Positions 11,130 to 42,974 of a DNA stretch of 64,000 nt are shown here, piece by piece. The notes under the pieces are model-generated. The model did no database searches. It saw only the letters and a program-made list of their open reading frames with translations, and was not told where the DNA came from. How positions within the stretch are numbered: position 1 is the stretch's first letter; the number at the start of each line of letters is the position of its first letter. This DNA comes from an uncultured Pelagibacteraceae bacterium (GTDB lineage: Bacteria > Pseudomonadota > Alphaproteobacteria > Pelagibacterales > Pelagibacteraceae): contig CABXOW010000001.1 of the NCBI GenBank assembly GCA_902513955.1, positions 44,278-108,277 on the forward strand, in the 5' to 3' direction. The position numbers and the translations under genes were made by a program.

Positions 11130-12005
11130 GTGCCTCAACAAACCCCTTTATTTAATGTAATTTTATTAGCTGCTGGTGGTTTTTTTATGTTTGTCTGTAT
11201 GGACTCTACAGCAAAATACCTAGGAACTGTAATGCCAATTACTCAAGCAATTTGGGGAAGATTTTTTTTTCATTTAATATCTCTAATTATATTTTTTTTA
11301 ATCTTCAAACCAAAAATAAATTTAAAAAAAAATTTCAAACTGCAAATAATAAGATCCTTATTGATGGTGACAGCCACAACATTCATGTTTTATTCTTTAC
11401 AAAAATTTGACTTAGTAGATATATATGTCGTTTTCTTTTCTGCACCCTTAATAGTTTCATTGCTATCTGCATATTTTTTAAAAGATATTTTATCTTTTAA
11501 AGGAATAATGTTAATGCTTCTAAGTTTTGGTTCAATTATCTACGCAGTAGGACCAAGCATGAAAATATTTAGTGTAGACTTAATTTTTCCGATTGTGCCT
11601 CCTATTTGCTGGGCTCTTTATCAGTTTTTTACAAAAGTTATATCGACTGACAACGATCCTTTTGCTGCAATTTTTTATACTTCAATTTTAGGAGCAATTA
11701 TTTTTAGTATTTTTATATCTTTTAATTGGGTACCCTTAGAAAAAAATATTTATTGGCTTTATTTAATATTACTTGGTGTAGCAGGATTTATAAGTCATTC
11801 ATTAATAATTTATGCAATACAATTATCTAACTTATCATTTGTCACTAATTTTCAATATTCGCAATTAATATGGTCTACTATTGTAAATTTCTTAATTTTT
11901 GGTGTACCTTTTGATTATAATAAAATTATAGGTGTAATTGGAATCATTATATTTGGATTATTATTTATTCGTACAGAAGGTAATAAAGATAAGGTTAAAG
12001 TCTAA
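11130..12005 (+). CDS. DMT/EamA family transporter
   Basis: About 10 TM segments. Start placed at the GTG after the uxaA stop. Confidence 0.8.
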   Translation: MPQQTPLFNVILLAAGGFFMFVCMDSTAKYLGTVMPITQAIWGRFFFHLISLIIFFLIFKPKINLKKNFKLQIIRSLLMVTATTFMFYSLQKFDLVDIYVVFFSAPLIVSLLSAYFLKDILSFKGIMLMLLSFGSIIYAVGPSMKIFSVDLIFPIVPPICWALYQFFTKVISTDNDPFAAIFYTSILGAIIFSIFISFNWVPLEKNIYWLYLILLGVAGFISHSLIIYAIQLSNLSFVTNFQYSQLIWSTIVNFLIFGVPFDYNKIIGVIGIIIFGLLFIRTEGNKDKVKV

Positions 12006-13029
12006 TTTTTTTTCCATTCTTTGCACTTTTCGTAATTGCTGCAAAAATTTTAAGTGACACTAAACCATCATTACCATTAACTTTTGGTTTAACTTTTTTA
12101 TTAACTACATCAGAAAAGTGATTAATTTGGTTAACAAGAGTATTGTCATCTTTCTTATTCTTGTCTTCATTAACTAAAATTTTATTCCACCAACTTCTTT
12201 CTTTTTTGTAAAACCAATTTTTTAAATTTGGAAATTGAATTGATCCTTTTGTTCCTCCAATCATATAAGCTGATTGATTAGTGATTGGATAAGCTGGATT
12301 TTCACCTGCAGTTAATTCATAGCTCCATGGTGCCACAATAGTATCGGAAATATTTAAAGTACATAAGGCTCCAGATTTAAACACCAAACTTACTGTTGCC
12401 GTATCTTCAATTTTAAATTTTCTAGTTTTATTGGTTGTAAACGCTTGAACATATTGAATTGGACCAAGCAAATAACAAATCATATCAATATCATGCACCA
12501 GATTAATACCTAATGGACCTCCCCCCTTACTAACTCTCCATTTTTCTTTGTAGTATTGTTTGTGTTTATAAAGCCAACATAAGACATTTGCAGATACAAT
12601 GTTACCAAGCTTGCCTTTAGTAATAATTTTTTTTACCTTTGAAACAATAAAATTGTGTCTTCTATGATAACCAATTAATAAAGGTGTTTTATTTTTTTTT
12701 GAACTATCAATAATTTTTTTTGCTGATTTAATGTTATCCGATATAGGTTTTTCTAATAAAACAGGAATTTTTTTTTTTAAAAAACTTACTGTATGCGTTT
12801 CGTGAAGTTGATTTGGTGTAGCTACAATTACAGCATCTAGATTTTTTGAATTTAAGAGTTTTTTAACATTTGGATAAAGTTGAACTTTATATTTTTTTGC
12901 TAAATTTTTTGCATTCTTACTTATATCTACTATTGAATGTAAATTTGCTTTTTTAGATTTTAAAATTGCTTTAATGTGTTGTAAACCCATTAAGCCTGTT
13001 CCAACAATTGAAATGTTTATTTTTTTCAT
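11995..13029 (-). CDS. Gfo/Idh/MocA oxidoreductase
   Basis: GTGLMG, ATPN..H, LEKP, GYHRRH, INLVHDID motifs. Confidence 0.88.
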   Translation of the reverse strand: MKKINISIVGTGLMGLQHIKAILKSKKANLHSIVDISKNAKNLAKKYKVQLYPNVKKLLNSKNLDAVIVATPNQLHETHTVSFLKKKIPVLLEKPISDNIKSAKKIIDSSKKNKTPLLIGYHRRHNFIVSKVKKIITKGKLGNIVSANVLCWLYKHKQYYKEKWRVSKGGGPLGINLVHDIDMICYLLGPIQYVQAFTTNKTRKFKIEDTATVSLVFKSGALCTLNISDTIVAPWSYELTAGENPAYPITNQSAYMIGGTKGSIQFPNLKNWFYKKERSWWNKILVNEDKNKKDDNTLVNQINHFSDVVNKKVKPKVNGNDGLVSLKIFAAITKSAKNGKKIRL

Positions 13030-30442: not shown

Positions 30443-32287
30443 TTATACGCCTTGTCTTTGTTTTGACTTTCCTTCTTTATGCAGTTTTAAAGCTTCTTTA
30501 TTCTCTTCAGTTATAGGTGCCTCTAATGTTGGACTGTCCCAAAAAGCTGAACCTTCCATCCATTTATAAGCATGAGTTTTTATTGAAATTACATAAGTTA
30601 TGTCTGATTTTTTTGCTCTCTTAAATGCTTCTTCAAGATCTGATAGTGAGCTTACTTCTTCTGATTTGGCTCCCATACTTGCTGCATGTTTGGCAAAATC
30701 AATATCAACTAGTCCAGGAGTTTTTGAGCTCTTTAATAAATTATTAAATTCTTTTCCACCTTTAAATAATTGAAGTCTATTTATAACTGCAAAACCACCA
30801 TTATCGCAAACAATTATGATAAGTTTATTTTTAGTGATAACAGAAGAATATATATCTGTATTATTTAAAAGATAAGATCCATCACCAACAAAAGAAATAA
30901 CTTCTTTGTCGGGATTTGCCATTTTGATTCCTAAAGCTCCAGATATTTCATAACTCATACAACTAAAGCCCCACTCTGTTTCATGGGTGTTTAATTCTCT
31001 AGGTCTCCAAACTTGGGCCACTTCTCCAACTAATCCACCTGCAGCTGTTACAGCAATATCTGAAGGATCAGAATTTCTATAGACAGAACCTATCACTTGA
31101 ACATAACTTGGTATTTCTTGATTAGAAGGTGCGCTCACATTATCTACATGCTCATTCCAAGCTTTTAATTCTACTTGAGATTTTTTATTCCATTCATCTT
31201 CTGCTTTCCAGTCACCAAGTGCTAATGAAAGCTCATTTAATGAAACTTTTGCATCTCCTACTACTGCTTGAGCCAAATGTTTGTTTGCATCAAATCTAGA
31301 AACATTTATTGAAACAAGTTTAAAATTTTCATTTTCAAAATTTGCCCATGATCCAGTTGTAAAGTCTGCAAGTTTTGTTCCTACTGCAATCGCGAGATCT
31401 GTTTTTTTAGCAAGAGAATTTGTATTTTTTCCTCCTAATCCTCCTATTTGACCTGCATAATGCGAATGATCCCTCTTCATTGTAGAATAACCCATTACAG
31501 TTTGAGTAACTGGAATATTGTGTTTGATTGCAAAATTGCTTAACTCCTCCATTGCATCAGAATAAAAAACTCCTCCACCAGAAATAATTATTGGATTTTT
31601 CGAGGACTTAATTTTTTGAGCCGCTTCTTTAATTTGAAATTCATCTGGTCGAGGTCTTCTAATAGTATGAATTTTTTCTTTAAAAAAATCTTCCGGATAA
31701 TCAAATGTCTGACCTTGGACATCTTGGCTTAAAGCTATACAGGCTGGACCGCAATCTGCCGGATCCAACATTGTTTGAACTGCCGTAGGAAAAGATTGGA
31801 TTATTTGTTCTGGCCTTGTAATTCTGTCAAAATACCGAGTTACTGGTTTAAAAGCGTCATTTACTGTAATTCCTGGATTATTAAAATGTTCTACTTGTTG
31901 TAAAACTGGATCTGGCATTCTATTTGCATAAGTGTCTCCTGGTAAAAATAAAATTGGTAATCGATTGCTCATCGCTACTGCAGCTGCTGTAACCATATTT
32001 GTCGCTCCAGGACCTACTGATGATGTTGCTACAAATATCTGCTGCCTTCTTTTTGCCCTAGCATAACCGATACCTGTTAAAGCCATATTTTGTTCATGAT
32101 GACCTCTATAAGTTGGAAGTTCTTTTTGATTTTCCTCTAACGCTTGTCCTAAACAAGCTACATTTCCATGACCAAAAATTCCAAATACACCTGGAAACAA
32201 AGGTTCTTTTTTCCCATTAATTAATATTTTTTGAGAAATTAAGTATTTAACAATTGCATGAGCACAAGTTAGTGTAATTTTTTTCAT
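30443..32287 (-). CDS. iolD: 3D-(3,5/4)-trihydroxycyclohexane-1,2-dione acylhydrolase (ThDP)
   Basis: GIFGHGNV, PDPVLQQ, DFTTGS, GFSCM.YEI, GDGSY motifs. Confidence 0.92.
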   Translation of the reverse strand: MKKITLTCAHAIVKYLISQKILINGKKEPLFPGVFGIFGHGNVACLGQALEENQKELPTYRGHHEQNMALTGIGYARAKRRQQIFVATSSVGPGATNMVTAAAVAMSNRLPILFLPGDTYANRMPDPVLQQVEHFNNPGITVNDAFKPVTRYFDRITRPEQIIQSFPTAVQTMLDPADCGPACIALSQDVQGQTFDYPEDFFKEKIHTIRRPRPDEFQIKEAAQKIKSSKNPIIISGGGVFYSDAMEELSNFAIKHNIPVTQTVMGYSTMKRDHSHYAGQIGGLGGKNTNSLAKKTDLAIAVGTKLADFTTGSWANFENENFKLVSINVSRFDANKHLAQAVVGDAKVSLNELSLALGDWKAEDEWNKKSQVELKAWNEHVDNVSAPSNQEIPSYVQVIGSVYRNSDPSDIAVTAAGGLVGEVAQVWRPRELNTHETEWGFSCMSYEISGALGIKMANPDKEVISFVGDGSYLLNNTDIYSSVITKNKLIIIVCDNGGFAVINRLQLFKGGKEFNNLLKSSKTPGLVDIDFAKHAASMGAKSEEVSSLSDLEEAFKRAKKSDITYVISIKTHAYKWMEGSAFWDSPTLEAPITEENKEALKLHKEGKSKQRQGV

Positions 32288-32377
32288 AAATTAAGTTTAA
32301 CTTTAATTATGTATAATGTTTATATATAATTAAACTATAAATTATAAAACCCAATTAAGTAAACTTAAAAAAAATCT

Positions 32378-33820
32378 ATGTATAACAAATTTGGACAATT
32401 CATTGACGGTAAATGGCAGCAAGCAGAAAAAAATGAAACATATGACGTAATTAACCCAGCTACTGAAGAAGTAATTGGAAAAGCATCAAAAGCATCATCT
32501 GTTGAAGTGCAGAGAGCTTTAAAATCTGCAGAAAAAGGTTTGGAAGTTTGGAAAAATACTGCACCATGGCAAAGAGCTTATACACTTAGAAAAATTGCTG
32601 ACTTAATGAGGAAAAAAAAAGATATTCTTGCAAAATGGCTAACTCTTGAAGTAGGAAAGCCTCTTGCAGAAGCTGTTGGTGAAGTTGGTGGTGGGGCTGA
32701 TATTTTTGAATGGAATGCAGAAGAGACAAAAAGAATTTATGGTCAAACACAACAAAGTAGATTCCCAGATACAAGAGTTCATGTTTATTATCAGCCAGTA
32801 GGAGTTGTTGCTGCTTTAATTCCTTGGAATTTTCCAATAGTTTTAGCATCAAGAAAAATTTCTACAGCTTTAGCAGCAGGATGTTCTGTTATTTGTAAAC
32901 CAGATACAATTACTCCTGGTGCAGTAATGGAATTAGTTAATATATGTAAAGAAGCGGGTGTACCAGATGGAGTAGTAAATCTTCTATCAGGTGATCCAGC
33001 TGAGATATCTAATGAACTAATGGAATCTGATATAATCAAAAAAGTTTCAATTACCGGCTCAACGAGAGTTGGTAAAATAATTTTAAAAAAAGCAGCTGAT
33101 AAAGTTCAAAGAGTTACAATGGAACTAAGTGGACACTCTCCTTTTATAGTATGTGAAGATGTGGACATGAACAAAGTTGCTGACATAGCGATTACTGGAA
33201 AGTTTAGAAATAATGGACAAGTATGTATCTCACCTAATAGATTTTATATCCAAGAAAATAGAAAAGATGAGTTTGTGAGTGCTTTTATGGATAGAGCAAA
33301 AAAATTAAAGATAGGTAATGGTATGGACGAAGGTGTTGAATTAGGGCCATTAAGTACCGCAAAAAGATTAGAAGAAATTGAAAAATTAGTAGAGAAAACA
33401 AAAAGTGAAGGTGCAAAAGTATTAATGGGTGGAAAAAGACCTGCTGGTTTTAATAAAGGTTACTATTATGAACCAACAGTTTTTGATGATGTAAAAGATA
33501 ATTTTACAATTATGAAAGAAGAACCTTTTGGTCCACTTGTGCCTATTTTAACTTTTAAAACCTTTGACGAAGTTATTGAAAGAGCAAATGATAATGATTT
33601 AGGTTTATGTAGCTATCTTTACACAAATTCAATGGACCAAGCTCATATTGGTTCTGAAAAATTAGAGTCTGGATGTGTTGCAGTTAATACTGGTGTAGTA
33701 GCATTGGCTGAAGCTCCTTTTGGAGGTATTAAACAAACTGGTTATGGACGCGAAGGTGGTTCTGGAGCAATCAAAGATTACTTAAATGTAAAATATACTC
33801 ATATGGGTCTAAAAATATAA
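32378..33820 (+). CDS. NAD-dependent aldehyde dehydrogenase, SSADH/alpha-ketoglutaric semialdehyde dehydrogenase (AraE)-like
   Basis: PWNFP, GDPAEIS, TGST, MELSGH, KFRNNGQVCISP, EPFGP motifs. Confidence 0.85.
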   Translation: MYNKFGQFIDGKWQQAEKNETYDVINPATEEVIGKASKASSVEVQRALKSAEKGLEVWKNTAPWQRAYTLRKIADLMRKKKDILAKWLTLEVGKPLAEAVGEVGGGADIFEWNAEETKRIYGQTQQSRFPDTRVHVYYQPVGVVAALIPWNFPIVLASRKISTALAAGCSVICKPDTITPGAVMELVNICKEAGVPDGVVNLLSGDPAEISNELMESDIIKKVSITGSTRVGKIILKKAADKVQRVTMELSGHSPFIVCEDVDMNKVADIAITGKFRNNGQVCISPNRFYIQENRKDEFVSAFMDRAKKLKIGNGMDEGVELGPLSTAKRLEEIEKLVEKTKSEGAKVLMGGKRPAGFNKGYYYEPTVFDDVKDNFTIMKEEPFGPLVPILTFKTFDEVIERANDNDLGLCSYLYTNSMDQAHIGSEKLESGCVAVNTGVVALAEAPFGGIKQTGYGREGGSGAIKDYLNVKYTHMGLKI

Positions 33821-33822
33821 CT

Positions 33823-34614
33823 ATGAGAAAAAATAAAGTTAAAGAAATGATGAAGGCAGGAAAACCTGTTGTTAATGGTTGGCTTCAAATACCAAGTACT
33901 GTTTCAGCTGAAGTAATGGCCCATCAAGGTTGGGACTCTCTAACAATTGATATGCAGCATGGTTTAGTTGATTACACTAATGCTCTTCCAATGCTGCAAA
34001 CGATTTCAACAACAGATGTTACTCCACTTGCTAGAGTCAATTGGAATGAACCAGGTCAAATAATGAAAATTCTTGATGCAGGTTGTTATGGTATTATCTG
34101 TCCAATGGTAAGCAATAAAGAAGAGGCAGAAAGATTTGTACAAGCATGCATGTATCCACCAAGAGGTTATAGAAGTTTTGGTCCAGTAAGAGGTTTGATT
34201 TATGGTGGTTCTGATTACGCAAAACATGCAAATGATGAAATGCTTAAATTAGCCATGATAGAAACAAAAGAATCTTTAGATAAGCTTGATGAAATTATGT
34301 CAACACAAGGTGTTGATGGAATATACATTGGTCCTGCAGATTTAAGTTTGGCTATAGGTGAAGAGCCAGGTTTCGATAGACCAGAAAGCACAAAAGCTTA
34401 TTCAGAAATTTTAAGAATTTTAGAGCACGCTAAAAAAAATAATATTTTTGCTGGTATTCATAACGGTACTCCAGAATATGCCAAAAAAATGATCGATAAA
34501 GGTTTTAATTTTGTAACAATTGGTGCTGATCAAAGAGCATTAAGCGCAGGTGCAAAAGCAGTAGTTGAACAAATGAAAGGTTTTTCTAAAAAAGAAGAAT
34601 CTAAAGCTTATTAA
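33823..34614 (+). CDS. HpcH/HpaI class II pyruvate aldolase (GarL/RhmA-like)
   Basis: IDMQHG, LDAG..GII.PM, YPPRGYRS, MIET, IGPADL motifs. Confidence 0.9.
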   Translation: MRKNKVKEMMKAGKPVVNGWLQIPSTVSAEVMAHQGWDSLTIDMQHGLVDYTNALPMLQTISTTDVTPLARVNWNEPGQIMKILDAGCYGIICPMVSNKEEAERFVQACMYPPRGYRSFGPVRGLIYGGSDYAKHANDEMLKLAMIETKESLDKLDEIMSTQGVDGIYIGPADLSLAIGEEPGFDRPESTKAYSEILRILEHAKKNNIFAGIHNGTPEYAKKMIDKGFNFVTIGADQRALSAGAKAVVEQMKGFSKKEESKAY

Positions 34615-34630
34615 TAAATTTTTACTATAT

Positions 34631-35038
34631 TCATTTGTAAAGAATATCTCTTCTATCAATAAACCCTTCAAAAGTTTTTATTGTAATTACAGATGGTAAA
34701 ATAAAAATAGATCTTTTGTCTTGTTCATTTCTAATTATTCTAAAATATCCTTTTTTAATTGCTGTATCAATATAAACATTTGACGTTAAATAAGATTTTT
34801 CAATTACTTTTAATAATTGATTTTTTGTAATTGATTTATTTTTATAATAAGCAAGCATTACCATATGCAACATAATCCAATGCTGAGGTGTTGTAGAAAA
34901 CCAATTAAGTAATTCATTCTCTAATCTACCTTCAAAATCACCTAGAGATACTTCAGCTAATTTAATTCTTTTTTGAGTAATTTTTGGAATTTTTTTCTGT
35001 TCTTCAAAATGTTTAGGGTACTTAAACTGTTTCTTCAT
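34631..35038 (-). CDS. Putative MarR-like winged-helix DNA-binding protein
   Basis: Helix pattern followed by KKGY....DKRS wing motif; 135 aa, basic. Confidence 0.55.
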   Translation of the reverse strand: MKKQFKYPKHFEEQKKIPKITQKRIKLAEVSLGDFEGRLENELLNWFSTTPQHWIMLHMVMLAYYKNKSITKNQLLKVIEKSYLTSNVYIDTAIKKGYFRIIRNEQDKRSIFILPSVITIKTFEGFIDRRDILYK

Positions 35039-35073: not shown

Positions 35074-36042
35074 TTATTTTTTGTTAGCTAATTTCTTATA
35101 TATATTATTAACTCTATATACTTCATCAGCAGTATTAAAATAAGCCTCATATTCTATTTCTTCAGGTGTTACATCAAAGTGATAATGACCAGCAACATTG
35201 TCTTTTGTATAGGAATAAAAATGTGTGTGCTCACCAGACTCTCTTAAGTTGAGATCACCCCCAGAAGGGTCGCCTGTCCAAAGTATGCTATAACCTTGCA
35301 ATTCTGGTCCAACAGGTTCATAAAATTGTAAAAAATCTTTTACACACTTCATTTGTTTCGGATCATAGTATTCGTGCTTAATATCAGCGTAATCAGGTTG
35401 TACATGAGATCTAATTTTTCCATTTAAAATTCTAAAAACGCCTGCCAAAGCAATTTGGTTATTACCTTTAATTTGTAAATTATTAGACAAAGCTTTTCTC
35501 ATTGCTTGTGGCAAAGAACCCTGTTCACCAGATCTTCCTTTTATCTTAATTTTAATAACTTTTCCTTTAACACCATCAGTATAATAAACATTTCCTAAGC
35601 CACCATGTTTTCTTGCTGTATATTTTTCAGCAATACACTCTTTATTTAATCCAACTCGTGCTATTATTGATTTTGACTCAGAAGTAATCAAATTTTCATT
35701 TATTACTAGCTCTCCACAATGACCGTCTAGACATGACATTGCACCTGAACCAGCTCCTAGAGCATAAGATTTTTCAGAACCAATCATTTTTGAAATTTCC
35801 TCATAATCAAATTCAGCACCAATGAATTTAGGATCGTGCATATAAGGCTCTCCACCAACATCGATAATCTTTTGATTTCCACTAATACCTTCTGATGGAC
35901 AATCCCACTTTCTTAAGTTTGGACATTCAACAACTGATACCTCAACTGTTTTATAATTTTGTGATAAGCCTAATTGTAAAGCTTCAGAAATTTTTTCTAA
36001 TGGATATTCTGTAAATTTTGCTTTTTCTATTTCCAATTGCAT
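35074..36042 (-). CDS. DUF1907/C11orf54 (PTD012)-like zinc enzyme, candidate beta-keto-acid decarboxylase
   Basis: VSVVECPNL, DVGGEPY, LGAGSG, SHVQP, EHTHF, GHYHFDVTPE.IEY..YF are colinear with human C11orf54 as I recall it. Confidence 0.85.
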   Translation of the reverse strand: MQLEIEKAKFTEYPLEKISEALQLGLSQNYKTVEVSVVECPNLRKWDCPSEGISGNQKIIDVGGEPYMHDPKFIGAEFDYEEISKMIGSEKSYALGAGSGAMSCLDGHCGELVINENLITSESKSIIARVGLNKECIAEKYTARKHGGLGNVYYTDGVKGKVIKIKIKGRSGEQGSLPQAMRKALSNNLQIKGNNQIALAGVFRILNGKIRSHVQPDYADIKHEYYDPKQMKCVKDFLQFYEPVGPELQGYSILWTGDPSGGDLNLRESGEHTHFYSYTKDNVAGHYHFDVTPEEIEYEAYFNTADEVYRVNNIYKKLANKK

Positions 36043-36131
36043 TACTGTATTAAGCTATATTTTATTTTGCATAATGTCTATAGATAATATATATAATATC
36101 TATACATAAATTAATTTTGGAAAAGGCTTTA

Positions 36132-37076
36132 ATGATAAATAAAGATTTAAAAGTTGCTGTTTTAGGCGCTGGTGCAATGGGTTGTCTGTTTGGAGGTTTG
36201 TTAGCTGAAAAAGGACTAAACGTAATCCTAATAGATGTTTGGAAAGAACATGTAGAAGCTATAAATAAAAATGGTCTTAAAATGGATGGTCATGGTGGCG
36301 ATAGATTTATTAAAGTTAAAGCAACAACAGATCCATCAAGTGTAGATCCTGTTGATGCTATAATTGTAATGTGCAAAGCAACTGTCTTAGAGCCCGCTCT
36401 CAAAAGTATCAAAAATATCATTGGAGAAAAAACTGTATTTATGTCTTTTCAAAACGGTATTGGTCATGAAGCAATTATACAAAAAATTGTTGGCAAAGAA
36501 AAAGTATTGGGCGGAACTACGACACAAGCATCAAATATATTAGGCCCAGGTCATATAAAAAATCATGCTGCTCTACCTTCCTGGATTGGAGAATACGATG
36601 GTGGAGTAAGTGACAGGGTAAAAGAAATTGCTGACACATTTACAGCTCATGGTTTAGAAATGATTGCTGCTGAAGATGTTAAAAAAAGAAAATGGATGAA
36701 ATTATTTGCGCTTACTGCAATTGGCCCTTTATCTGCAATTTTTGATCTAAATCACACGGAACTTTATATTGATAATAATAATCAGTCTATTTCTAGATCT
36801 TTAGGCAAAGAAATAATTCTAGAAACTAGAAAAGTTGCTTTAGCTGAAGGAATAGAGGTTTCTGAAGATGAATGTCTGTTTATGTTCAATAAAATAGTGG
36901 ACTCAAAACAAACCAATAAATCATCGATGGCGTTTGATGTCCTATATAAAAGAAAAACAGAAATTGATTTTATTAGTGGTGAAGTGTCTAGGCTTGGAAA
37001 AAATCATAAAATCCCAACTCCTTTAAATGATCTAATGTATAAAATGATTAAAGTTAAAGAAGGAATGTATAGTTGA
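36132..37076 (+). CDS. Ketopantoate reductase (PanE/ApbA) family oxidoreductase
   Basis: GAGAMG, QNGIG, KWMKL, SSMAFD...RKTEID. Start placed at ATG 36132 after an AAGG RBS. Confidence 0.85.
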   Translation: MINKDLKVAVLGAGAMGCLFGGLLAEKGLNVILIDVWKEHVEAINKNGLKMDGHGGDRFIKVKATTDPSSVDPVDAIIVMCKATVLEPALKSIKNIIGEKTVFMSFQNGIGHEAIIQKIVGKEKVLGGTTTQASNILGPGHIKNHAALPSWIGEYDGGVSDRVKEIADTFTAHGLEMIAAEDVKKRKWMKLFALTAIGPLSAIFDLNHTELYIDNNNQSISRSLGKEIILETRKVALAEGIEVSEDECLFMFNKIVDSKQTNKSSMAFDVLYKRKTEIDFISGEVSRLGKNHKIPTPLNDLMYKMIKVKEGMYS

Positions 37077-37943
37077 ATGATAAATATAGGAAAATTAAAA
37101 AAAATTAAAAATAATTTTCCTGTTTTAGTTGCTGAAAAAGCTATTCCTAAAAATATCTGTAAAAATTTAATCTCTGAAATAAGTTCATCTAAATCATTTG
37201 ATGATATAATAATGGGAGGAAGAAGTAGAATAAACAAAGGTTCAAAAAATTTCAAAATTTATTTAAAAAACTCTAAATATTCATTAAAGTTATTTAAGAA
37301 ATTTAATAATAAAATTTTTTTTAAAAAAATAGAAAAAATATTTAAATCAAAATTTAAAGAAAATACTTGGACAAATTTATACAATCCAAGATCATTTAAT
37401 TCAAAGAAGTTTACACTTAAAAGAAAAGTTAATTCCAAAGAGCTAACAAAATTATTAGGTGATAATTATAGAAATCCGATACTTAATTTGGATATAGATT
37501 TTTCAGTTTCTAAGGGTGGTTATCGTTTAAAACCTCATAGAGATGATGTTAATAGATTATATAATTTTTTAATTTATCTTACAGATATACCTAAAAAAAA
37601 TGGTGGTTCACTTACTCTATATAAAAAAAAATATAAGAAAATTATAAGAAAAAGTTTTAGAAGATTTCCAAAAGGTAGTGAGCTAAAAATTGTTAAAGAA
37701 TTTACTCCCAAACAAGGAACTGTTATCTTTTTTAAGTCTACACCGAATTCATATCATGGAGTTAAAAGATTTAAAGAATTTAACTGTCCAAAAAGATTTT
37801 TTATTTATGGAAGTTATGCATTAAACAAACCTGTTATCTGGTCATTTAAAAATAATAATTATTTTCCGACTATTGTACCTAATAATAAAAGAATGCTTAC
37901 TTCTTTTCATGATTCAAATTATCTGCTAAAAAAGACTAGCTAA
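37077..37943 (+). CDS. Fe(II)/2-oxoglutarate oxygenase superfamily protein
   Basis: PHRDD (HxD), LIYL, GGSL, distal SYHGV and R. Confidence 0.78.
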   Translation: MINIGKLKKIKNNFPVLVAEKAIPKNICKNLISEISSSKSFDDIIMGGRSRINKGSKNFKIYLKNSKYSLKLFKKFNNKIFFKKIEKIFKSKFKENTWTNLYNPRSFNSKKFTLKRKVNSKELTKLLGDNYRNPILNLDIDFSVSKGGYRLKPHRDDVNRLYNFLIYLTDIPKKNGGSLTLYKKKYKKIIRKSFRRFPKGSELKIVKEFTPKQGTVIFFKSTPNSYHGVKRFKEFNCPKRFFIYGSYALNKPVIWSFKNNNYFPTIVPNNKRMLTSFHDSNYLLKKTS

Positions 37944-37944
37944 A

Positions 37945-38940
37945 ATGAAGAGCAACTCAAAAATTAAAGAAATCTTAAAGAGAGATGGGTTTGTAAAAGT
38001 AAAAAACATTTTAAATTTCAATAAAGATTTAAAACCTATCATGAAGGACATGGAATTCGTTATGGACTGCCTCATCCAAAAGTTCGCTCCCAAAATTTAC
38101 AAAAATAGAGCATTAAATTATGATTTTAGAAAAAAATACACATATGTATCTAAATTAAATATTTATGATCTGGATCAATATTTCAATACGAGATTACCTA
38201 GAGATCATGTTAAGAAAGATAGTGATTACTTTGCTTCACATTCACTTTGGAATCTAATTACAAATAAAAAAATATTAGATGTTGTGGAAAAAATTTTAGG
38301 TTCTGAAATTTTATCTAGCCCAGTACAAAATACTAGAATTAAACAACCAGAAAAAAAATTGCCTAAAGGATCAGTGCATGATGGTTTGAGTGGCAGAACA
38401 CCTTGGCATCAAGATGCGGCTGTATTGTCTACTCACGGTCAAAAATTTTGTGATATGGTTACTGTTTGGATACCATTCACTAAAACAACTAAAAACAACG
38501 GGTGCATGATTACGGTTAAAGAAATTAATAAAATGGGATTACTAAACCATATATCTGGATACAAAGGACAAGTAGAAATTAAAAATAGTAAACTTTTAGA
38601 TAAATTTAAACCAATATATCTACAGGCCGATGTGGGTGACATTATACTTTTGCATAAACATTCAATACATTGCTCGCTTCCAAACAAATCTAATAATTTT
38701 AGAATTAGTGCTGATTTAAGATATAATAGAGCTGGAACACCTTCGGGACGTAAACCCTTACCTAACTTTTATGTCAGAAGTAAAAACAAAAAAAATATTA
38801 AAATTCATAATTACAAACAATGGGTAGCTCTTTGGGAAAAAGCTAAAAATAAATGTATACCAAGAAAATATGCTTTTAAATATCCTTTACCAACTTTTAA
38901 ACATAACAATAGAGATCTATCAAATTTATTAACAAAATAA
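37945..38940 (+). CDS. Phytanoyl-CoA dioxygenase (PhyH) family Fe(II)/2OG oxygenase
   Basis: RDGFV, TPWHQD, VWIP....NGC, GD....H...H.S.PN...RISADLRY motifs. Confidence 0.85.
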   Translation: MKSNSKIKEILKRDGFVKVKNILNFNKDLKPIMKDMEFVMDCLIQKFAPKIYKNRALNYDFRKKYTYVSKLNIYDLDQYFNTRLPRDHVKKDSDYFASHSLWNLITNKKILDVVEKILGSEILSSPVQNTRIKQPEKKLPKGSVHDGLSGRTPWHQDAAVLSTHGQKFCDMVTVWIPFTKTTKNNGCMITVKEINKMGLLNHISGYKGQVEIKNSKLLDKFKPIYLQADVGDIILLHKHSIHCSLPNKSNNFRISADLRYNRAGTPSGRKPLPNFYVRSKNKKNIKIHNYKQWVALWEKAKNKCIPRKYAFKYPLPTFKHNNRDLSNLLTK

Positions 38941-38951
38941 ATTTTCCTAAT

Positions 38952-39908
38952 ATGAAAAAAATATTAATTATACAACCTATTCATGAAGCTGGTATTGAAT
39001 TATTAAAAAAAAATCCAGACTATGAATTTGAAGTTGTTGAAAAAATTGACCCTGAATTTTTAAAAACAAAAATAAAAAATTGTGATGGCGCATCTATTAG
39101 AACTGCAAAATTACCCGGTAATGTAATTGAAACTGCAAACAATTTAAAGATTATTTCAAGACATGGTGTTGGATACGACAATATCGATTTAGAAGTTTCT
39201 AAAAAAAAGAACTTAACTCTTGCTATTACTGCAACAGCTAATGCAATTGCTGTAGCTGAACATGTAATGTTTATGCTGCTAAATATATCCAAAAGAAAAA
39301 ATATGTATGATGACACTGTTAAAGAAGGAAAATTTAATGATAGAAATAAACTGCCTAAAACTGTTGAACTATGGAATAAAAATATCCTAATTGCAGGATT
39401 TGGGAGAATAGGTAAAGCTTTAATAAAAAGATGCCTTGGATTTGAAATGAAAGTTTTTGTTTATGATCCCTTTGTTTCTCAAGATATAATAGAAAAACTA
39501 GGCGGAATCAAAGTAGATAGCATGGAAGAAACTTGCAAAGAAATGGATGCTATATCTCTTCACATCCCTTTAAATGATAAAACTAAAAATATAATCAATT
39601 ATGGTTTACTTCAATCTATGAAAAAAAATTGCATCGTAATTAATGCTGCCCGAGGTGGAATTGTTAATGAAGTTGATTTAGATAGAGCTTTAAAAGAAAA
39701 TTTAATTTTTGGCGCTGGTTTAGATGTTTTTGAAACCGAACCACCTGAACAAAATAATCCTTTATTAAAAAATGATAAAGTTTTTTTAAGTCCACATACA
39801 GCTTCTTTCACGGAAGAATGTATGACTAGAATGGGTAAAGAAACTATACAAAATATTATTGATTTTTTTGATAATAAATTAGAAACGTCAAAAATTGTAA
39901 AATTATAA
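38952..39908 (+). CDS. D-2-hydroxyacid dehydrogenase (SerA-like, no ACT domain)
   Basis: RHGVGYDN, GFGRIG, NAARGG, LDVFETEP, SPH motifs; 318 aa. Confidence 0.85.
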   Translation: MKKILIIQPIHEAGIELLKKNPDYEFEVVEKIDPEFLKTKIKNCDGASIRTAKLPGNVIETANNLKIISRHGVGYDNIDLEVSKKKNLTLAITATANAIAVAEHVMFMLLNISKRKNMYDDTVKEGKFNDRNKLPKTVELWNKNILIAGFGRIGKALIKRCLGFEMKVFVYDPFVSQDIIEKLGGIKVDSMEETCKEMDAISLHIPLNDKTKNIINYGLLQSMKKNCIVINAARGGIVNEVDLDRALKENLIFGAGLDVFETEPPEQNNPLLKNDKVFLSPHTASFTEECMTRMGKETIQNIIDFFDNKLETSKIVKL

Positions 39909-40802
39909 AATAATATCTAAATCTACTTCTTTACAAACTTTAGACAAATAATTAAATCCGATTTTGGCATACTCTAAAGGATTTGCTTTAGACGGATCCT
40001 GTTCTGCTTCAACTACTAACCAGCCATTATAATCATTTCTTTTTAAAAAATTTAATAAAGGTTTATAATCAATACATCCATCTCCAGGAACTGTAAAAGC
40101 ACCTTCTAAAAAAGCTTGTCTAAAACTTAAATCTTTTTCTAATGATTTATTTAAAATATTTTTTCTCATGTCTTTGCAATGAATGTGAACAACTCTTTCT
40201 TTAAAATTTTCAGCTACTTCAATAGAATTTCCTCCAGCAAAAAGCATATGTCCAGTGTCTAAAATTAATTTAACTTGATCATTAGTGCTTTCTAAAAGTC
40301 TTTCTGTATCTTTTTGTGATTCAATTACTGTCCCCATATGATGATGATAAGCTAATGGCATACCCTGGTCTTCTAGATATTTTCCAATTTCTGAAATTTT
40401 TCTACAAAAATTACTCCATTCTTCATTATCCATTTGAGGTCTAGTTGATAAAGGTCTATTTGGATCACCCGCAATAGAATCAGAAACTTCTGCAAAAACT
40501 ATACAAGGTGCTTTACAGTCTTGAAAAAGTTTTAGCTGTTCTTGAATTGCAACAATTTCATCTTTCACAGAATTTTTTCTTAAATTTGCTCCATACCATC
40601 CTGAACATAATCTTAAGTTATATTTTTCTAATAAAGGGATAAGTTCTTCAGATTTTTTTGGGAATTTACCACCAGACTCTATTCCTGAAAATCCAGCTTC
40701 ATTTGCCTCTGAAAGACATTGTTCTAAAGGAGTGTCTCCTCCTAGTTCAGGCATGTCATCATTGCTCCATGCTATTGGTGCTATTCCTAATTTTACTGAC
40801 AT
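39903..40802 (-). CDS. iolE: myo-inosose-2 dehydratase
   Basis: GIAPIAWSNDD, YHHHMGT, DTGH, HCKD, VPGDG, VVEAEQDP. Start placed at MSVKL. Confidence 0.93.
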   Translation of the reverse strand: MSVKLGIAPIAWSNDDMPELGGDTPLEQCLSEANEAGFSGIESGGKFPKKSEELIPLLEKYNLRLCSGWYGANLRKNSVKDEIVAIQEQLKLFQDCKAPCIVFAEVSDSIAGDPNRPLSTRPQMDNEEWSNFCRKISEIGKYLEDQGMPLAYHHHMGTVIESQKDTERLLESTNDQVKLILDTGHMLFAGGNSIEVAENFKERVVHIHCKDMRKNILNKSLEKDLSFRQAFLEGAFTVPGDGCIDYKPLLNFLKRNDYNGWLVVEAEQDPSKANPLEYAKIGFNYLSKVCKEVDLDIIL

Positions 40803-40842
40803 AATATTTCTTTTTGTTATGATATATGAAACTGTAAACACA

Positions 40843-41976
40843 ATGAAAACAAAAAAATTATCTTTAGGAATAGTTGGTGGGGGTCCAAATTCTTGGATTG
40901 GCCATGTACATAGAATTTCAGCGAGATTTGATGATCGTTATAAAATAGTTGCTGGTGTTTTTTCAAGAAATTCAAAATTATCAATAAGTTTTGGGGAAAG
41001 TATAGGGATTAAAAAAGACAGATGTTACTCAAACTACAAAGAAATGGCTGATAAAGAGTCCAAAAGAAATGACGGTATTGAGGTAGTTTCAATAATGACA
41101 CCTCCTGCAAGTCATCAAGTTATAGCTGAAAAATTTATAGATAAAAATATTCACATTATCTCTGATAAGCCTTTTGCAGGAAATTTAAAGCAAGCTAAAA
41201 AATTATATAAAAAAATTAAATCTAATAAAAAAATTAAATATGCTCTAACTCATAATTATTCCTCTTATCCTATGGTAAGAGAAGCTAAGGTGCTAATTGA
41301 AAAAGGAAAAATTGGTAAGGTTGAATATATTAACGTTGAATATATTCAAGATTGGTCTGGAGGAGCAAAAATAACTTCTAAAAATGCAAAGAAAAAATTA
41401 AAATGGAAAATAGATAATAAAATAGTTGGAGCTTCGGCTGTACTTAATGAAATTGGAACACACGCATATCATTTAGCCTTATATATTTCTGGATTAAAAG
41501 GAAAACAAGTATTTGCTGATATAAAACAAATTTCAAATAAAATTAAGATGGATGATAACGCCCAAGTAATGATCAATTTTACTAATGGAGCTAAAGGGAT
41601 GTTTTGGACTAGCGTAATGGCAAGAGGCGGTGTTTATGGTTTAAAAATAAGAATATTTGGTTCTAAAGGTAGTTTGGAATGGGTACAAAACGATCCTGGT
41701 TATTTAAAATTAAACCCTGGAAAAGGAGCTGTTAAATTGCTTGAAAGAGGATTTCATAATGCAGAATTATCTAAAAAATTTTCAAGAATTAAATTTGGTC
41801 ATCCGGAAGGTTATTTAGATGCTTTTGCAAATATCTACAAAGAATTTTCTGACTCATTAAAAACTAAATCTAAAAAAAGATTTTTTTACCCAAATGAAGA
41901 TGAGGGACTAGAAACGGCAAAGTTTATAAATGCCTGCAAAGTTTCTTCTAGAAGAAAAAGATGGGTAAAAATATAA
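40843..41976 (+). CDS. Gfo/Idh/MocA oxidoreductase (inositol-cluster type)
   Basis: GGG..SWIGHVHR, DKP, HNY..YPMV, EYIQDW, GTHA, GHPEGY motifs. Start placed at MKTKK. Confidence 0.87.
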   Translation: MKTKKLSLGIVGGGPNSWIGHVHRISARFDDRYKIVAGVFSRNSKLSISFGESIGIKKDRCYSNYKEMADKESKRNDGIEVVSIMTPPASHQVIAEKFIDKNIHIISDKPFAGNLKQAKKLYKKIKSNKKIKYALTHNYSSYPMVREAKVLIEKGKIGKVEYINVEYIQDWSGGAKITSKNAKKKLKWKIDNKIVGASAVLNEIGTHAYHLALYISGLKGKQVFADIKQISNKIKMDDNAQVMINFTNGAKGMFWTSVMARGGVYGLKIRIFGSKGSLEWVQNDPGYLKLNPGKGAVKLLERGFHNAELSKKFSRIKFGHPEGYLDAFANIYKEFSDSLKTKSKKRFFYPNEDEGLETAKFINACKVSSRRKRWVKI

Positions 41977-42974
41977 TTAATATCGCCTTATTTGGCCTTG
42001 GAAGGATTGGTCAAATGCATGCTGAAAATTTAATCAATCATCCTGAATTTAATTTAAAATATGTTTTTGATATAGATAAAAAATTAACAAAAAAATTATC
42101 CAAAAAATATCAATGTATACCTATTAAAAACCCTTCTATAGCTTTGAAAGATAAAAATATTAAAAGTATTTTTATATCTACAAGTACCAAAACTCATTTA
42201 AAATTTATAGAAGAGGCAGTTAAAAATAAAAAAATCGTTTTCTGTGAAAAACCTTTGGACTTAAATTTAAAAAAGATTAATCAATGTAAAAAAAATATTG
42301 CTAAATATAATCCTAAAATTCAAATAGGCTTTAATAGAAGATATGACCCTGCGCATAATTCTTTAAAAAAAAATTTACTTAAAGGTAAAATAGGCAAATT
42401 AGAAAAGATAATAATAACAAGTCGTGACCCTGCTCCACCTCCATTGAATTATTTAATGACATCTGGTGGTATATTTAAAGACATGATGATACACGATTTT
42501 GATTTAGCCAGGTATTATGCTGGATCAGATGAATTTAATTCTTTATTTGCAACAGGTAAATATTTTACTGATAAAAAATTTAAAAAAATTAAAGATTTAG
42601 AATTAGCCACTGTAGTAATGAAGTCAAAAAAAGGTGTGCAATGTATCATTACAAACTCTAGACACTGTAGCTTTGGATATGATCAACGAATTGAACTCTT
42701 TGGTTCTAAAGGTATGATAATTTCTGACAATCAAAGAGATCAGGAGACTTCCTTTTATTCTAAAAATTCAACTAATAATAAATCTACTTTCAAAAATTTT
42801 TTTATTGAAAGATATTCTGACGCTTACAAAATTCAGTTAAATGATTTGGCAAAACTCTGCAAAAAAAATATTAAACCATTAGCAAATTTTGAAGATGGTA
42901 GATTATCATTAATCTTAGCAGAGACTGCTAATAAGTCTTTAAAAACAAAAAAATTAGAGAAAGTTAAATTTTAG
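41961..42974 (+). CDS. iolG: myo-inositol 2-dehydrogenase
   Basis: GLGRIG, FCEKP, GFNRRYD, TSRDP, SGGIFKDMMIHDFD, GYDQR.E motifs. Confidence 0.88.
   Translation: MGKNIINIALFGLGRIGQMHAENLINHPEFNLKYVFDIDKKLTKKLSKKYQCIPIKNPSIALKDKNIKSIFISTSTKTHLKFIEEAVKNKKIVFCEKPLDLNLKKINQCKKNIAKYNPKIQIGFNRRYDPAHNSLKKNLLKGKIGKLEKIIITSRDPAPPPLNYLMTSGGIFKDMMIHDFDLARYYAGSDEFNSLFATGKYFTDKKFKKIKDLELATVVMKSKKGVQCIITNSRHCSFGYDQRIELFGSKGMIISDNQRDQETSFYSKNSTNNKSTFKNFFIERYSDAYKIQLNDLAKLCKKNIKPLANFEDGRLSLILAETANKSLKTKKLEKVKF

Follow-up and report, generated by a model that had tools for sequence, protein, structure and literature searches.

Decarboxylation of 2-hydroxy-3-oxo acids at a zinc site formed by three histidines has been described for both characterised branches of one protein fold (PMC12337341). 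The first branch is represented by human C11orf54 (PTD012; EC 4.1.1.34; PDB code 1XCR). Residues H266, H268 and H278 of this enzyme are the Zn ligands, H217 and R263 are essential, and D315, the C-terminal Asp, contributes but is non-essential. The human protein also has a weak esterase activity, and in rotifers a DUF1907 domain is fused to the dehydrogenase CRYL1 (PMC12337341). The second branch is acetolactate decarboxylase (AlsD/BudA; PDB codes 4BT2 and 4BT3), which shares the fold family, the three-His Zn site and the substrate class. The part of the main text of PMC12337341 on which this comparison is based mentions neither bacteria nor prokaryotes nor Pelagibacter; its supplements could list bacterial sequences. 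Besides this paper, parts of PMC10127515 and PMC3478992 were drawn on. In the portion of the DUF1907 literature that was covered, bacterial homologues are mentioned once and without a function, and a marine paper merely tabulates DUF1907. Nothing was found on SAR11 inositol in connection with panE, iolB or iolD in a search that most subscription papers lay outside.

The window is the whole stretch of 64,000 nucleotides of Pelagibacteraceae DNA that was analysed. At positions 35074..36042 of its minus strand it encodes a protein of 322 amino acids, which is assigned as a predicted Zn decarboxylase of the DUF1907/C11orf54 family on the basis of Pfam, a PDB match, alignment and a structural model. 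The original prediction had called this protein colinear with C11orf54 and had ascribed a zinc-binding motif to it; VSVVECPNL, VGGEPY and LGAGSG as well as EHTH and GHYH are indeed all present in the translation. The family assignment was borne out by the Pfam profile search, in which PF08925 (DUF1907) was matched end to end (positions 1-285 of 285, E 1.5e-59, 202 bits versus a cut-off of 25). Human PTD012 (1XCR, E 7.4e-36) was the sole sequence match in the PDB. An AlphaFold model, for which an alignment of 67 sequences served as input, had a mean pLDDT of 96.8. Superposed on PTD012 it displayed the same fold (Z 42.1, rmsd 1.9 Å over 296 residues, TM 0.81, 33% identity); acetolactate decarboxylases followed with Z 14-15 and about 10% identity. 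The protein matches PF08925 only, an acetolactate decarboxylase family match was not obtained, and it contains His/Arg instead of the Arg/Glu of those enzymes (PMC12337341).

According to the sequence alignment, the predicted Zn ligands H272, H274 and H286 correspond to human H266, H268 and H278, and in the multiple alignment H213 and R267 take the places of the essential H217 and R263. Positions were counted on the pairwise alignment with the human chain, whose numbers are one above those of the paper, except for the Arg, which was taken from the multiple alignment; the pairwise alignment sets the gap at this residue differently. The three-His site is invariant and the catalytic His/Arg pair nearly invariant in the 67 aligned sequences. 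Two residues are inserted after R267, ahead of the Zn histidines. The C-terminal Asp is missing, as the protein ends in Lys; this Asp was found in only one of 120 SAR11 matches and in none of 120 other bacterial-type matches. The window protein is thus a true C11orf54 homologue with an intact predicted active site. The 33% identity to the sole characterised member, the insertion beside the catalytic Arg and the weak esterase activity of the human protein (PMC12337341) could also fit a Zn enzyme that shares the fold but catalyses a different reaction, for instance as a hydrolase, an isomerase or an enzyme of acyloin rearrangement. This is considered quite improbable, given that the two branches characterised so far are both decarboxylases of 2-hydroxy-3-oxo acids (PMC12337341), that the His/Arg pair marking a decarboxylase is so well conserved, and that the pairing with a dehydrogenase described below parallels that with CRYL1.

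Among the best 80 of 195 confirmed stretches, the nearest relatives of the window protein belong to the Pelagibacteraceae. DUF1907 is present in 69 of 301 sampled Pelagibacterales genomes and in three of 11 genera, and in a random sample of Pseudomonadota it was detected in none of 400 genomes besides the window genome. Cultured carriers include HTCC8051, nBUS_29 and HIMB1444. With a non-SAR11 DUF1907 query, relatives were found in Woeseiaceae, Arenicella, Gammaproteobacteria and Caldilineaceae. Of the 80 loci kept (from 255) in a metagenome scan for non-SAR11 contexts, 78 were SAR11-like with low GC and two had a high GC content. Plasmids yielded no DUF1907; their PanE matches were generic (about 35%), and the one PhyH match lay in an unrelated cluster. 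Contigs from four marine RNA libraries hold pieces of the DUF1907 gene in small shares, and such contigs cannot show transcription.

Besides its low identity to C11orf54 and the lack of the C-terminal Asp, the window protein differs from the human enzyme in belonging to a separate clade. It contains the motif RxxGEHTH, not RxEHTH, and the alignment reveals an insertion of about eight residues after HxxPD, which is common to the marine clade. RxxGEHTH was found in 120 of 120 SAR11 matches and in 119 of 120 other bacterial-type matches. The clade was set apart from the RxEHTH sequences with SH-aLRT values of 96 (82 rows) and 98 (56 rows) in quick, midpoint-rooted trees that did not include the human sequence and were calculated without an AU test. 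It also contains DUF1907-PanE fusions, whose host organisms are probably protists, and the EukProt protein P0285. Of the two origins raised in the original prediction, the phylogeny favours a marine bacterial clade, which spans several phyla, and speaks against the capture of an animal gene by SAR11 alone. Nor do these quick trees, in which the clade lies apart from the animal-type sequences, support an animal-like 3-keto-L-gulonate step.

Two groups of fusion proteins deserve mention here. The DUF1907-PanE fusions P0158, P0309 and P0311 have a strongly biased composition, P0158 lying uninterrupted on a 71-kb contig, and could stem from AT-rich protists or from giant viruses. When viral contigs were scanned three times for a giant-virus source of P0158 and P0311, no relative with DUF1907 was found, and the ESM Atlas contributed no further taxa for the fusions. 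In P0128, P0285 and P0187, DUF1907 domains of both clades are fused behind a similar 2OG-dioxygenase-like domain, for which BLAST revealed no relationship to the SAR11 oxygenases. In P0128, the Pfam match of this PhyH-like domain was below the cut-off.

A PanE/ApbA-like oxidoreductase is encoded divergently from DUF1907 at positions 36132..37076 of the plus strand (314 amino acids from the ATG common to relatives; the longest reading frame starts at 36117). The 89 bp between the two genes (36043..36131) are presumed to be a shared promoter region; in a promoter scan of this interval, consensus signals were at chance level. The original prediction had named the PanE-like protein as a candidate partner, and its distribution agrees with this proposal. 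The 69 of 301 Pelagibacterales genomes that contain it are precisely those with DUF1907, and its gene lies immediately upstream in 77 of the 80 DUF1907 loci whose neighbourhood was checked, the other three ending within 400 nt. In two other genera the module sits at other chromosomal sites, and in eight of their genomes its two genes are separated by about 6-9 kb or distributed over different contigs. On a non-SAR11 contig with 55% GC, genes for a TRAP permease, PanE and DUF1907 stand in tandem. Furthermore, 17 of 25 matches to a fusion query contain both domains in one protein, and these fusions mirror the CRYL1-DUF1907 fusion of rotifers (PMC12337341). At least two DUF1907 branches can thus be distinguished by the dehydrogenase with which they are paired, and for this reason the designation EC 4.1.1.34 on bacterial members is probably wrong.

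The PanE-like protein matches TIGR00745 with 247 bits versus a cut-off of 141. It shares the fold of ketopantoate reductase and of PanE-type D-2-hydroxyacid dehydrogenases, and the catalytic Lys and Glu are kept: N108, K190, S264/S265 and E277 are the equivalents of Asn98, the catalytic Lys, Ser244 and Glu256 of the E. coli enzyme. The substrate side is different. In the E. coli enzyme, the carboxylate of the substrate is bound by Asn184 (PMC10127515). Across the PanE-like subfamily this position is occupied by Gly or Ser, and that of Asn180, which also binds pantoate, by Leu in SAR11: Leu and Gly were found in 126 of 127 sequences parsed, with one unparsed, and Ser at the Asn184 position in the DUF1907-PanE fusions where it is readable. 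The loss of the Asn184 equivalent makes pantoate chemistry unlikely. As is general for Rossmann folds, an Asp where the second strand ends, here Asp35, suggests that the enzyme uses NAD(H), and such a preference would point to a catabolic role. PanE-family enzymes act at C2 (PMC10127515); for the oxidation at C3 proposed below, a changed regiochemistry or a tautomerisation must therefore be assumed.

A role of the locus in pantothenate synthesis was considered and rejected, because the PanB-like neighbour is a paralogue distinct from core panB and is absent from the window genome. This paralogue is found in 12 of 20 carriers and in one of 60 non-carriers, there at a contig end in the position of the cassette. 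The PanE-like gene is lacking in 232 of 301 SAR11 genomes, and most of those sampled keep core panB. PanC was not found in the window genome, which is 83% complete. In P0313 and P0314, the same PanE subfamily, with 39-48% identity to the partners, is fused to a histidine phosphatase and a 3-dehydroquinate synthase; the fusion forms a cluster of 15 members on contigs of up to 7.5 Mb.

The co-occurrence of further genes was assessed in 20 carriers and 60 non-carriers, a panel hand-picked from the 301 genomes. A PhyH-family 2-oxoglutarate/Fe(II) dioxygenase (37945..38940, plus strand) is present in all 20 carriers and in none of the 60 non-carriers. It is the third steady member of the module in SAR11 and had been overlooked by the earlier note. 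A second 2OG-Fe(II) oxygenase (37077..37943, plus strand) is optional, with 16 of 20 carriers and one of 60 non-carriers, the latter containing a relative with 41% identity. Downstream of DUF1907, a reading frame of 135 amino acids (34631..35038, minus strand) is found in 77 of 80 loci and encodes a probable winged-helix regulator, whose Sar/Rot match is below the cut-off (E 0.0018). Because related genomes were counted and most of the genes are linked, these figures delimit the module and do not amount to independent tests. PhyH is not visible on the short non-SAR11 contig and is lacking in the PanE fusions; the trio is therefore established for SAR11 only. Module-side transporters vary by lineage between Liv-type ABC, TRAP and sugar ABC systems.

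Tartrate dehydrogenase was rejected as a member, being present in seven of 20 carriers versus 27 of 60 non-carriers. In one lineage, 11 metagenome loci (e.g. L100, 3807-4871) nevertheless have a tartrate dehydrogenase gene above the equivalog cut-off on the downstream side of DUF1907. A recurring flank, exemplified by positions 161-6149 of L025 and shared by about 25 similar loci, consists of a TRAP transporter, a reading frame of 587 amino acids and a Gfo/Idh/MocA gene; by eye, the C-terminal part of the 587-residue product resembles a di-haem cytochrome c peroxidase.

The window itself contains a Gfo/Idh/MocA dehydrogenase gene at 11995..13029 (minus strand), a candidate unlinked member. Its product is 70% identical to that of a gene which other SAR11 lineages have in 18 DUF1907 loci, where it often stands between PanE and DUF1907, and its best family match is a sugar 3-dehydrogenase model, below the cut-off. 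The gene was found in five of five carriers, about 19-28 kb away, and one close orthologue was found in five non-carriers. The module might thus be wired differently: the Gfo/Idh/MocA enzyme would make the 3-keto acid, and the PanE-like protein would act elsewhere, with the decarboxylation product or a 2-oxo acid as conceivable substrates. This wiring is regarded as unlikely. The co-occurrence sample comprises 10 genomes only, and the gene occurs in no fusion, whereas PanE is fused 17 times; nor is it seen on the non-SAR11 contig.

In the window, the cassette of five genes resides among inositol genes, as the original prediction had stated. iolD (30443..32287, minus strand) and iolE (39903..40841, minus strand) were assigned by NCBIfam matches above cut-off, and iolG also exceeds its cut-off. 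The cassette lies exactly between the HpcH aldolase gene, which together with an aldehyde dehydrogenase gene belongs to the flanking host cluster (32378..34614, plus strand), and a D-2-hydroxyacid dehydrogenase gene at the other border (38952..39908, plus strand). Among the 15 loci examined, all eight iolD loci from non-carriers of the window genus have the 2-hydroxyacid dehydrogenase gene right after the HpcH aldolase gene. Counting G511, which is flagged as unpublished, as one non-carrier, iolD occurs in 121 of 301 genomes; 65 of 69 DUF1907 carriers have iolD, and 56 of 121 iolD genomes are without DUF1907. In genus g216, five of six carriers have iolD versus a base of 14 of 21. The overlap in the window genus is largely due to physical linkage. 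The cassette is thus separable from inositol breakdown: the neighbourhood of iol genes claimed at the outset was found, but a tie of the decarboxylation step to inositol is not supported, as 56 iolD genomes do without the cassette.

IolB/KduI was detected in none of 80 iolD genomes (40 cassette carriers, 40 non-carriers), and IolC above cut-off in none of six SAR11 iolD genomes. Taken together with the position inside the iol cluster of the window, this could mean that the cassette replaces IolB/IolC and finishes myo-inositol breakdown after IolD. However, IolB is lacking irrespective of the cassette, which is therefore not the missing lower inositol pathway. The many iolD genomes devoid of DUF1907 and the direct succession of the two border genes in the eight non-carrier loci are also at odds with a replacement, which is largely refuted by this distribution and considered very improbable.

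The aldehyde dehydrogenase and HpcH aldolase genes flank iolD in 15 of 15 loci (window 30443-34614 and 38952-42974; L177-L191). Together with the absence of IolB and IolC, these flanking genes suggest that the lower inositol route of SAR11 is kinase-free. A certain connection with cyclitols persists even so. In g216, the PanE operon contains genes for a CoA ligase, a BadI/MenB-type crotonase that is below both the BadI and the MenB cut-off, an enolase-family enzyme and a CitE-like lyase, and it ends with as many as three genes of the inositol dehydrogenase family. One of these dehydrogenase families was found in the panel only in iolD genomes (none of 20 iolD-negative genomes); it is present in five of six g216 carriers versus one of nine g216 non-carriers. 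The CoA ligase/crotonase block is absent from all five carriers of the window genus, the window genome included. In L148, DUF1907 abuts iolE.

For the window protein, the original prediction had favoured the reaction of the human enzyme. In such an animal-like route, DUF1907 would decarboxylate 3-keto-L-gulonate to L-xylulose, and the PanE-like protein would oxidise L-gulonate or reduce 2,3-diketo-L-gulonate, a breakdown product of ascorbate, at C2. All five mapped active-site residues are kept, and the C2 reduction of a 2,3-diketo acid would fit the normal regiochemistry of PanE. A CRYL1-family gene does exist in the window genome (E 3e-33 to lambda-crystallin), but it is located on another contig among betaine/carnitine genes, and such genes are no more frequent in carriers (six of 20) than in non-carriers (22 of 60). 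Unlike human C11orf54, the window protein has PanE-like and PhyH partners instead of CRYL1, and a xylulose kinase is not consistently present. In a search of 58 genomes, an FGGY kinase was absent from 10 of 34 carriers, five of which are single-contig genomes; the sole FGGY kinase of the window genome, which is incomplete as noted, is the glycerol kinase GlpK. On the other hand, a second FGGY kinase occurs in four of 34 carriers, in the variable flank at a distance of about 13 kb, and ROK or PfkB kinases could stand in. The missing FGGY kinase therefore only lowers the probability of an animal-type route. As this route also leaves the steady PhyH dioxygenase unexplained, and as the marine clade has its own substrate-side insertions, it is judged to be improbable, and 3-keto-L-gulonate is probably not the substrate of the module.

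Two loci touch on these enzyme families. At positions 10337-11785 of L210 (G429), a second FGGY kinase gene stands beside ribokinase and FucU/RbsD genes. The CRYL1/3HCDH-family dehydrogenase of the window genome (L199, 7973-8914, contig C19) lies beside a betaine-type ABC transporter and is presumably a carnitine dehydrogenase, judging from its context and its motifs.

With modest confidence, it is proposed instead that the module ends in a phosphate-free, Zn-dependent decarboxylation of a 2-hydroxy-3-oxo acid generated by PhyH and the PanE-like enzyme. First, a polyhydroxy compound taken up by the cell would receive a hydroxyl group from the PhyH-type dioxygenase. Its oxidation by the PanE-like NAD dehydrogenase would give the 2-hydroxy-3-oxo acid, from which the DUF1907 enzyme would release CO2 without prior phosphorylation, leaving an alpha-hydroxy ketone. 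The chemistry of the last step is likely by analogy to the human enzyme and acetolactate decarboxylase; the order of the steps and the preference for NAD are presumed. Of the decarboxylation originally predicted, the phosphate-free loss of CO2 from a beta-keto acid thus persists as likely chemistry, whereas an animal-like 3-keto-L-gulonate step tied to inositol is not supported. The bacterial decarboxylase UlaD/SgbH also acts on a beta-keto sugar acid; this TIM-barrel Mg enzyme converts phosphorylated 3-keto-L-gulonate-6-phosphate, and the window cassette contains no kinase gene. C1 removal by an oxygenase in combination with a dehydrogenase or decarboxylase is known from sterol C4 demethylation and from thymine hydroxylase with iso-orotate decarboxylase, and the D-apionate route runs via 3-oxo-isoapionate. 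These routes have only the logic in common with the module (oxidation, beta-keto acid, loss of CO2); families and substrates are unrelated.

This oxygenase-dehydrogenase-decarboxylase module of SAR11 is likely an undescribed catabolic module that removes one carbon from a polyhydroxy acid. SAR11 genomes are streamlined, and the retention of the module in 69 of 301 species points to a dissolved organic compound of the ocean that has not yet been linked to SAR11. An orphan route is thereby narrowed to three constant enzymes, the last of which has a predictable reaction.

As a guess, the lead candidate for the substrate is a cyclitol-type acid, i.e. a hydroxylated cyclohexane carboxylate or a C-branched inositol that is oxidised to one; loss of CO2 from such an acid would yield an inosose that IolE/IolD could use. 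With a ring substrate, the inositol-type dehydrogenases, the BadI-like enzyme, the location in iol clusters and the fusion to 3-dehydroquinate synthase would be accounted for, none of which is specific. The alternative with the same chemistry is a tetronate- or glycerate-type acid, short and linear. Extended to a common route, the cyclitol proposal becomes speculative and has a rather low probability: about one quarter of SAR11 species, other marine bacteria and probably protists would remove C1 from cyclitols, the 2OG dioxygenase and the PanE-like enzyme generating a ring 2-hydroxy-3-oxo acid, and DUF1907 an inosose which IolE, for instance the one encoded in the window, would accept and pass to IolD. 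Starting compounds could be a quinate-like acid, a C-methyl inositol (laminitol, mytilitol) or the hydroxymethyl ring of gadusol and mycosporine; laminitol and mytilitol appear in the marine and chemistry literature. The optional PanB-like paralogue might salvage a hydroxymethyl group; in other genera, the CoA-ligase/BadI-like block might instead open the same ring ketoacid.

Two further gene clusters were observed. In G540, positions 8339-15104 of L198 contain two additional PanB-like paralogues near genes that, by eye, encode a membrane desaturase/hydroxylase, a Rieske ferredoxin and a reductase; by the same inspection this appears to be another oxygenase plus hydroxymethyltransferase cluster. 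Positions 39-23946 of the window hold a dense set of sugar-acid genes, which comprises an enolase-family dehydratase, an FAH hydrolase, SDRs, a TRAP transporter, IlvD/EDD, GarD/UxaA, a sugar ABC transporter, a ROK kinase, a tripartite tricarboxylate transporter and a PdxA-like dehydrogenase.
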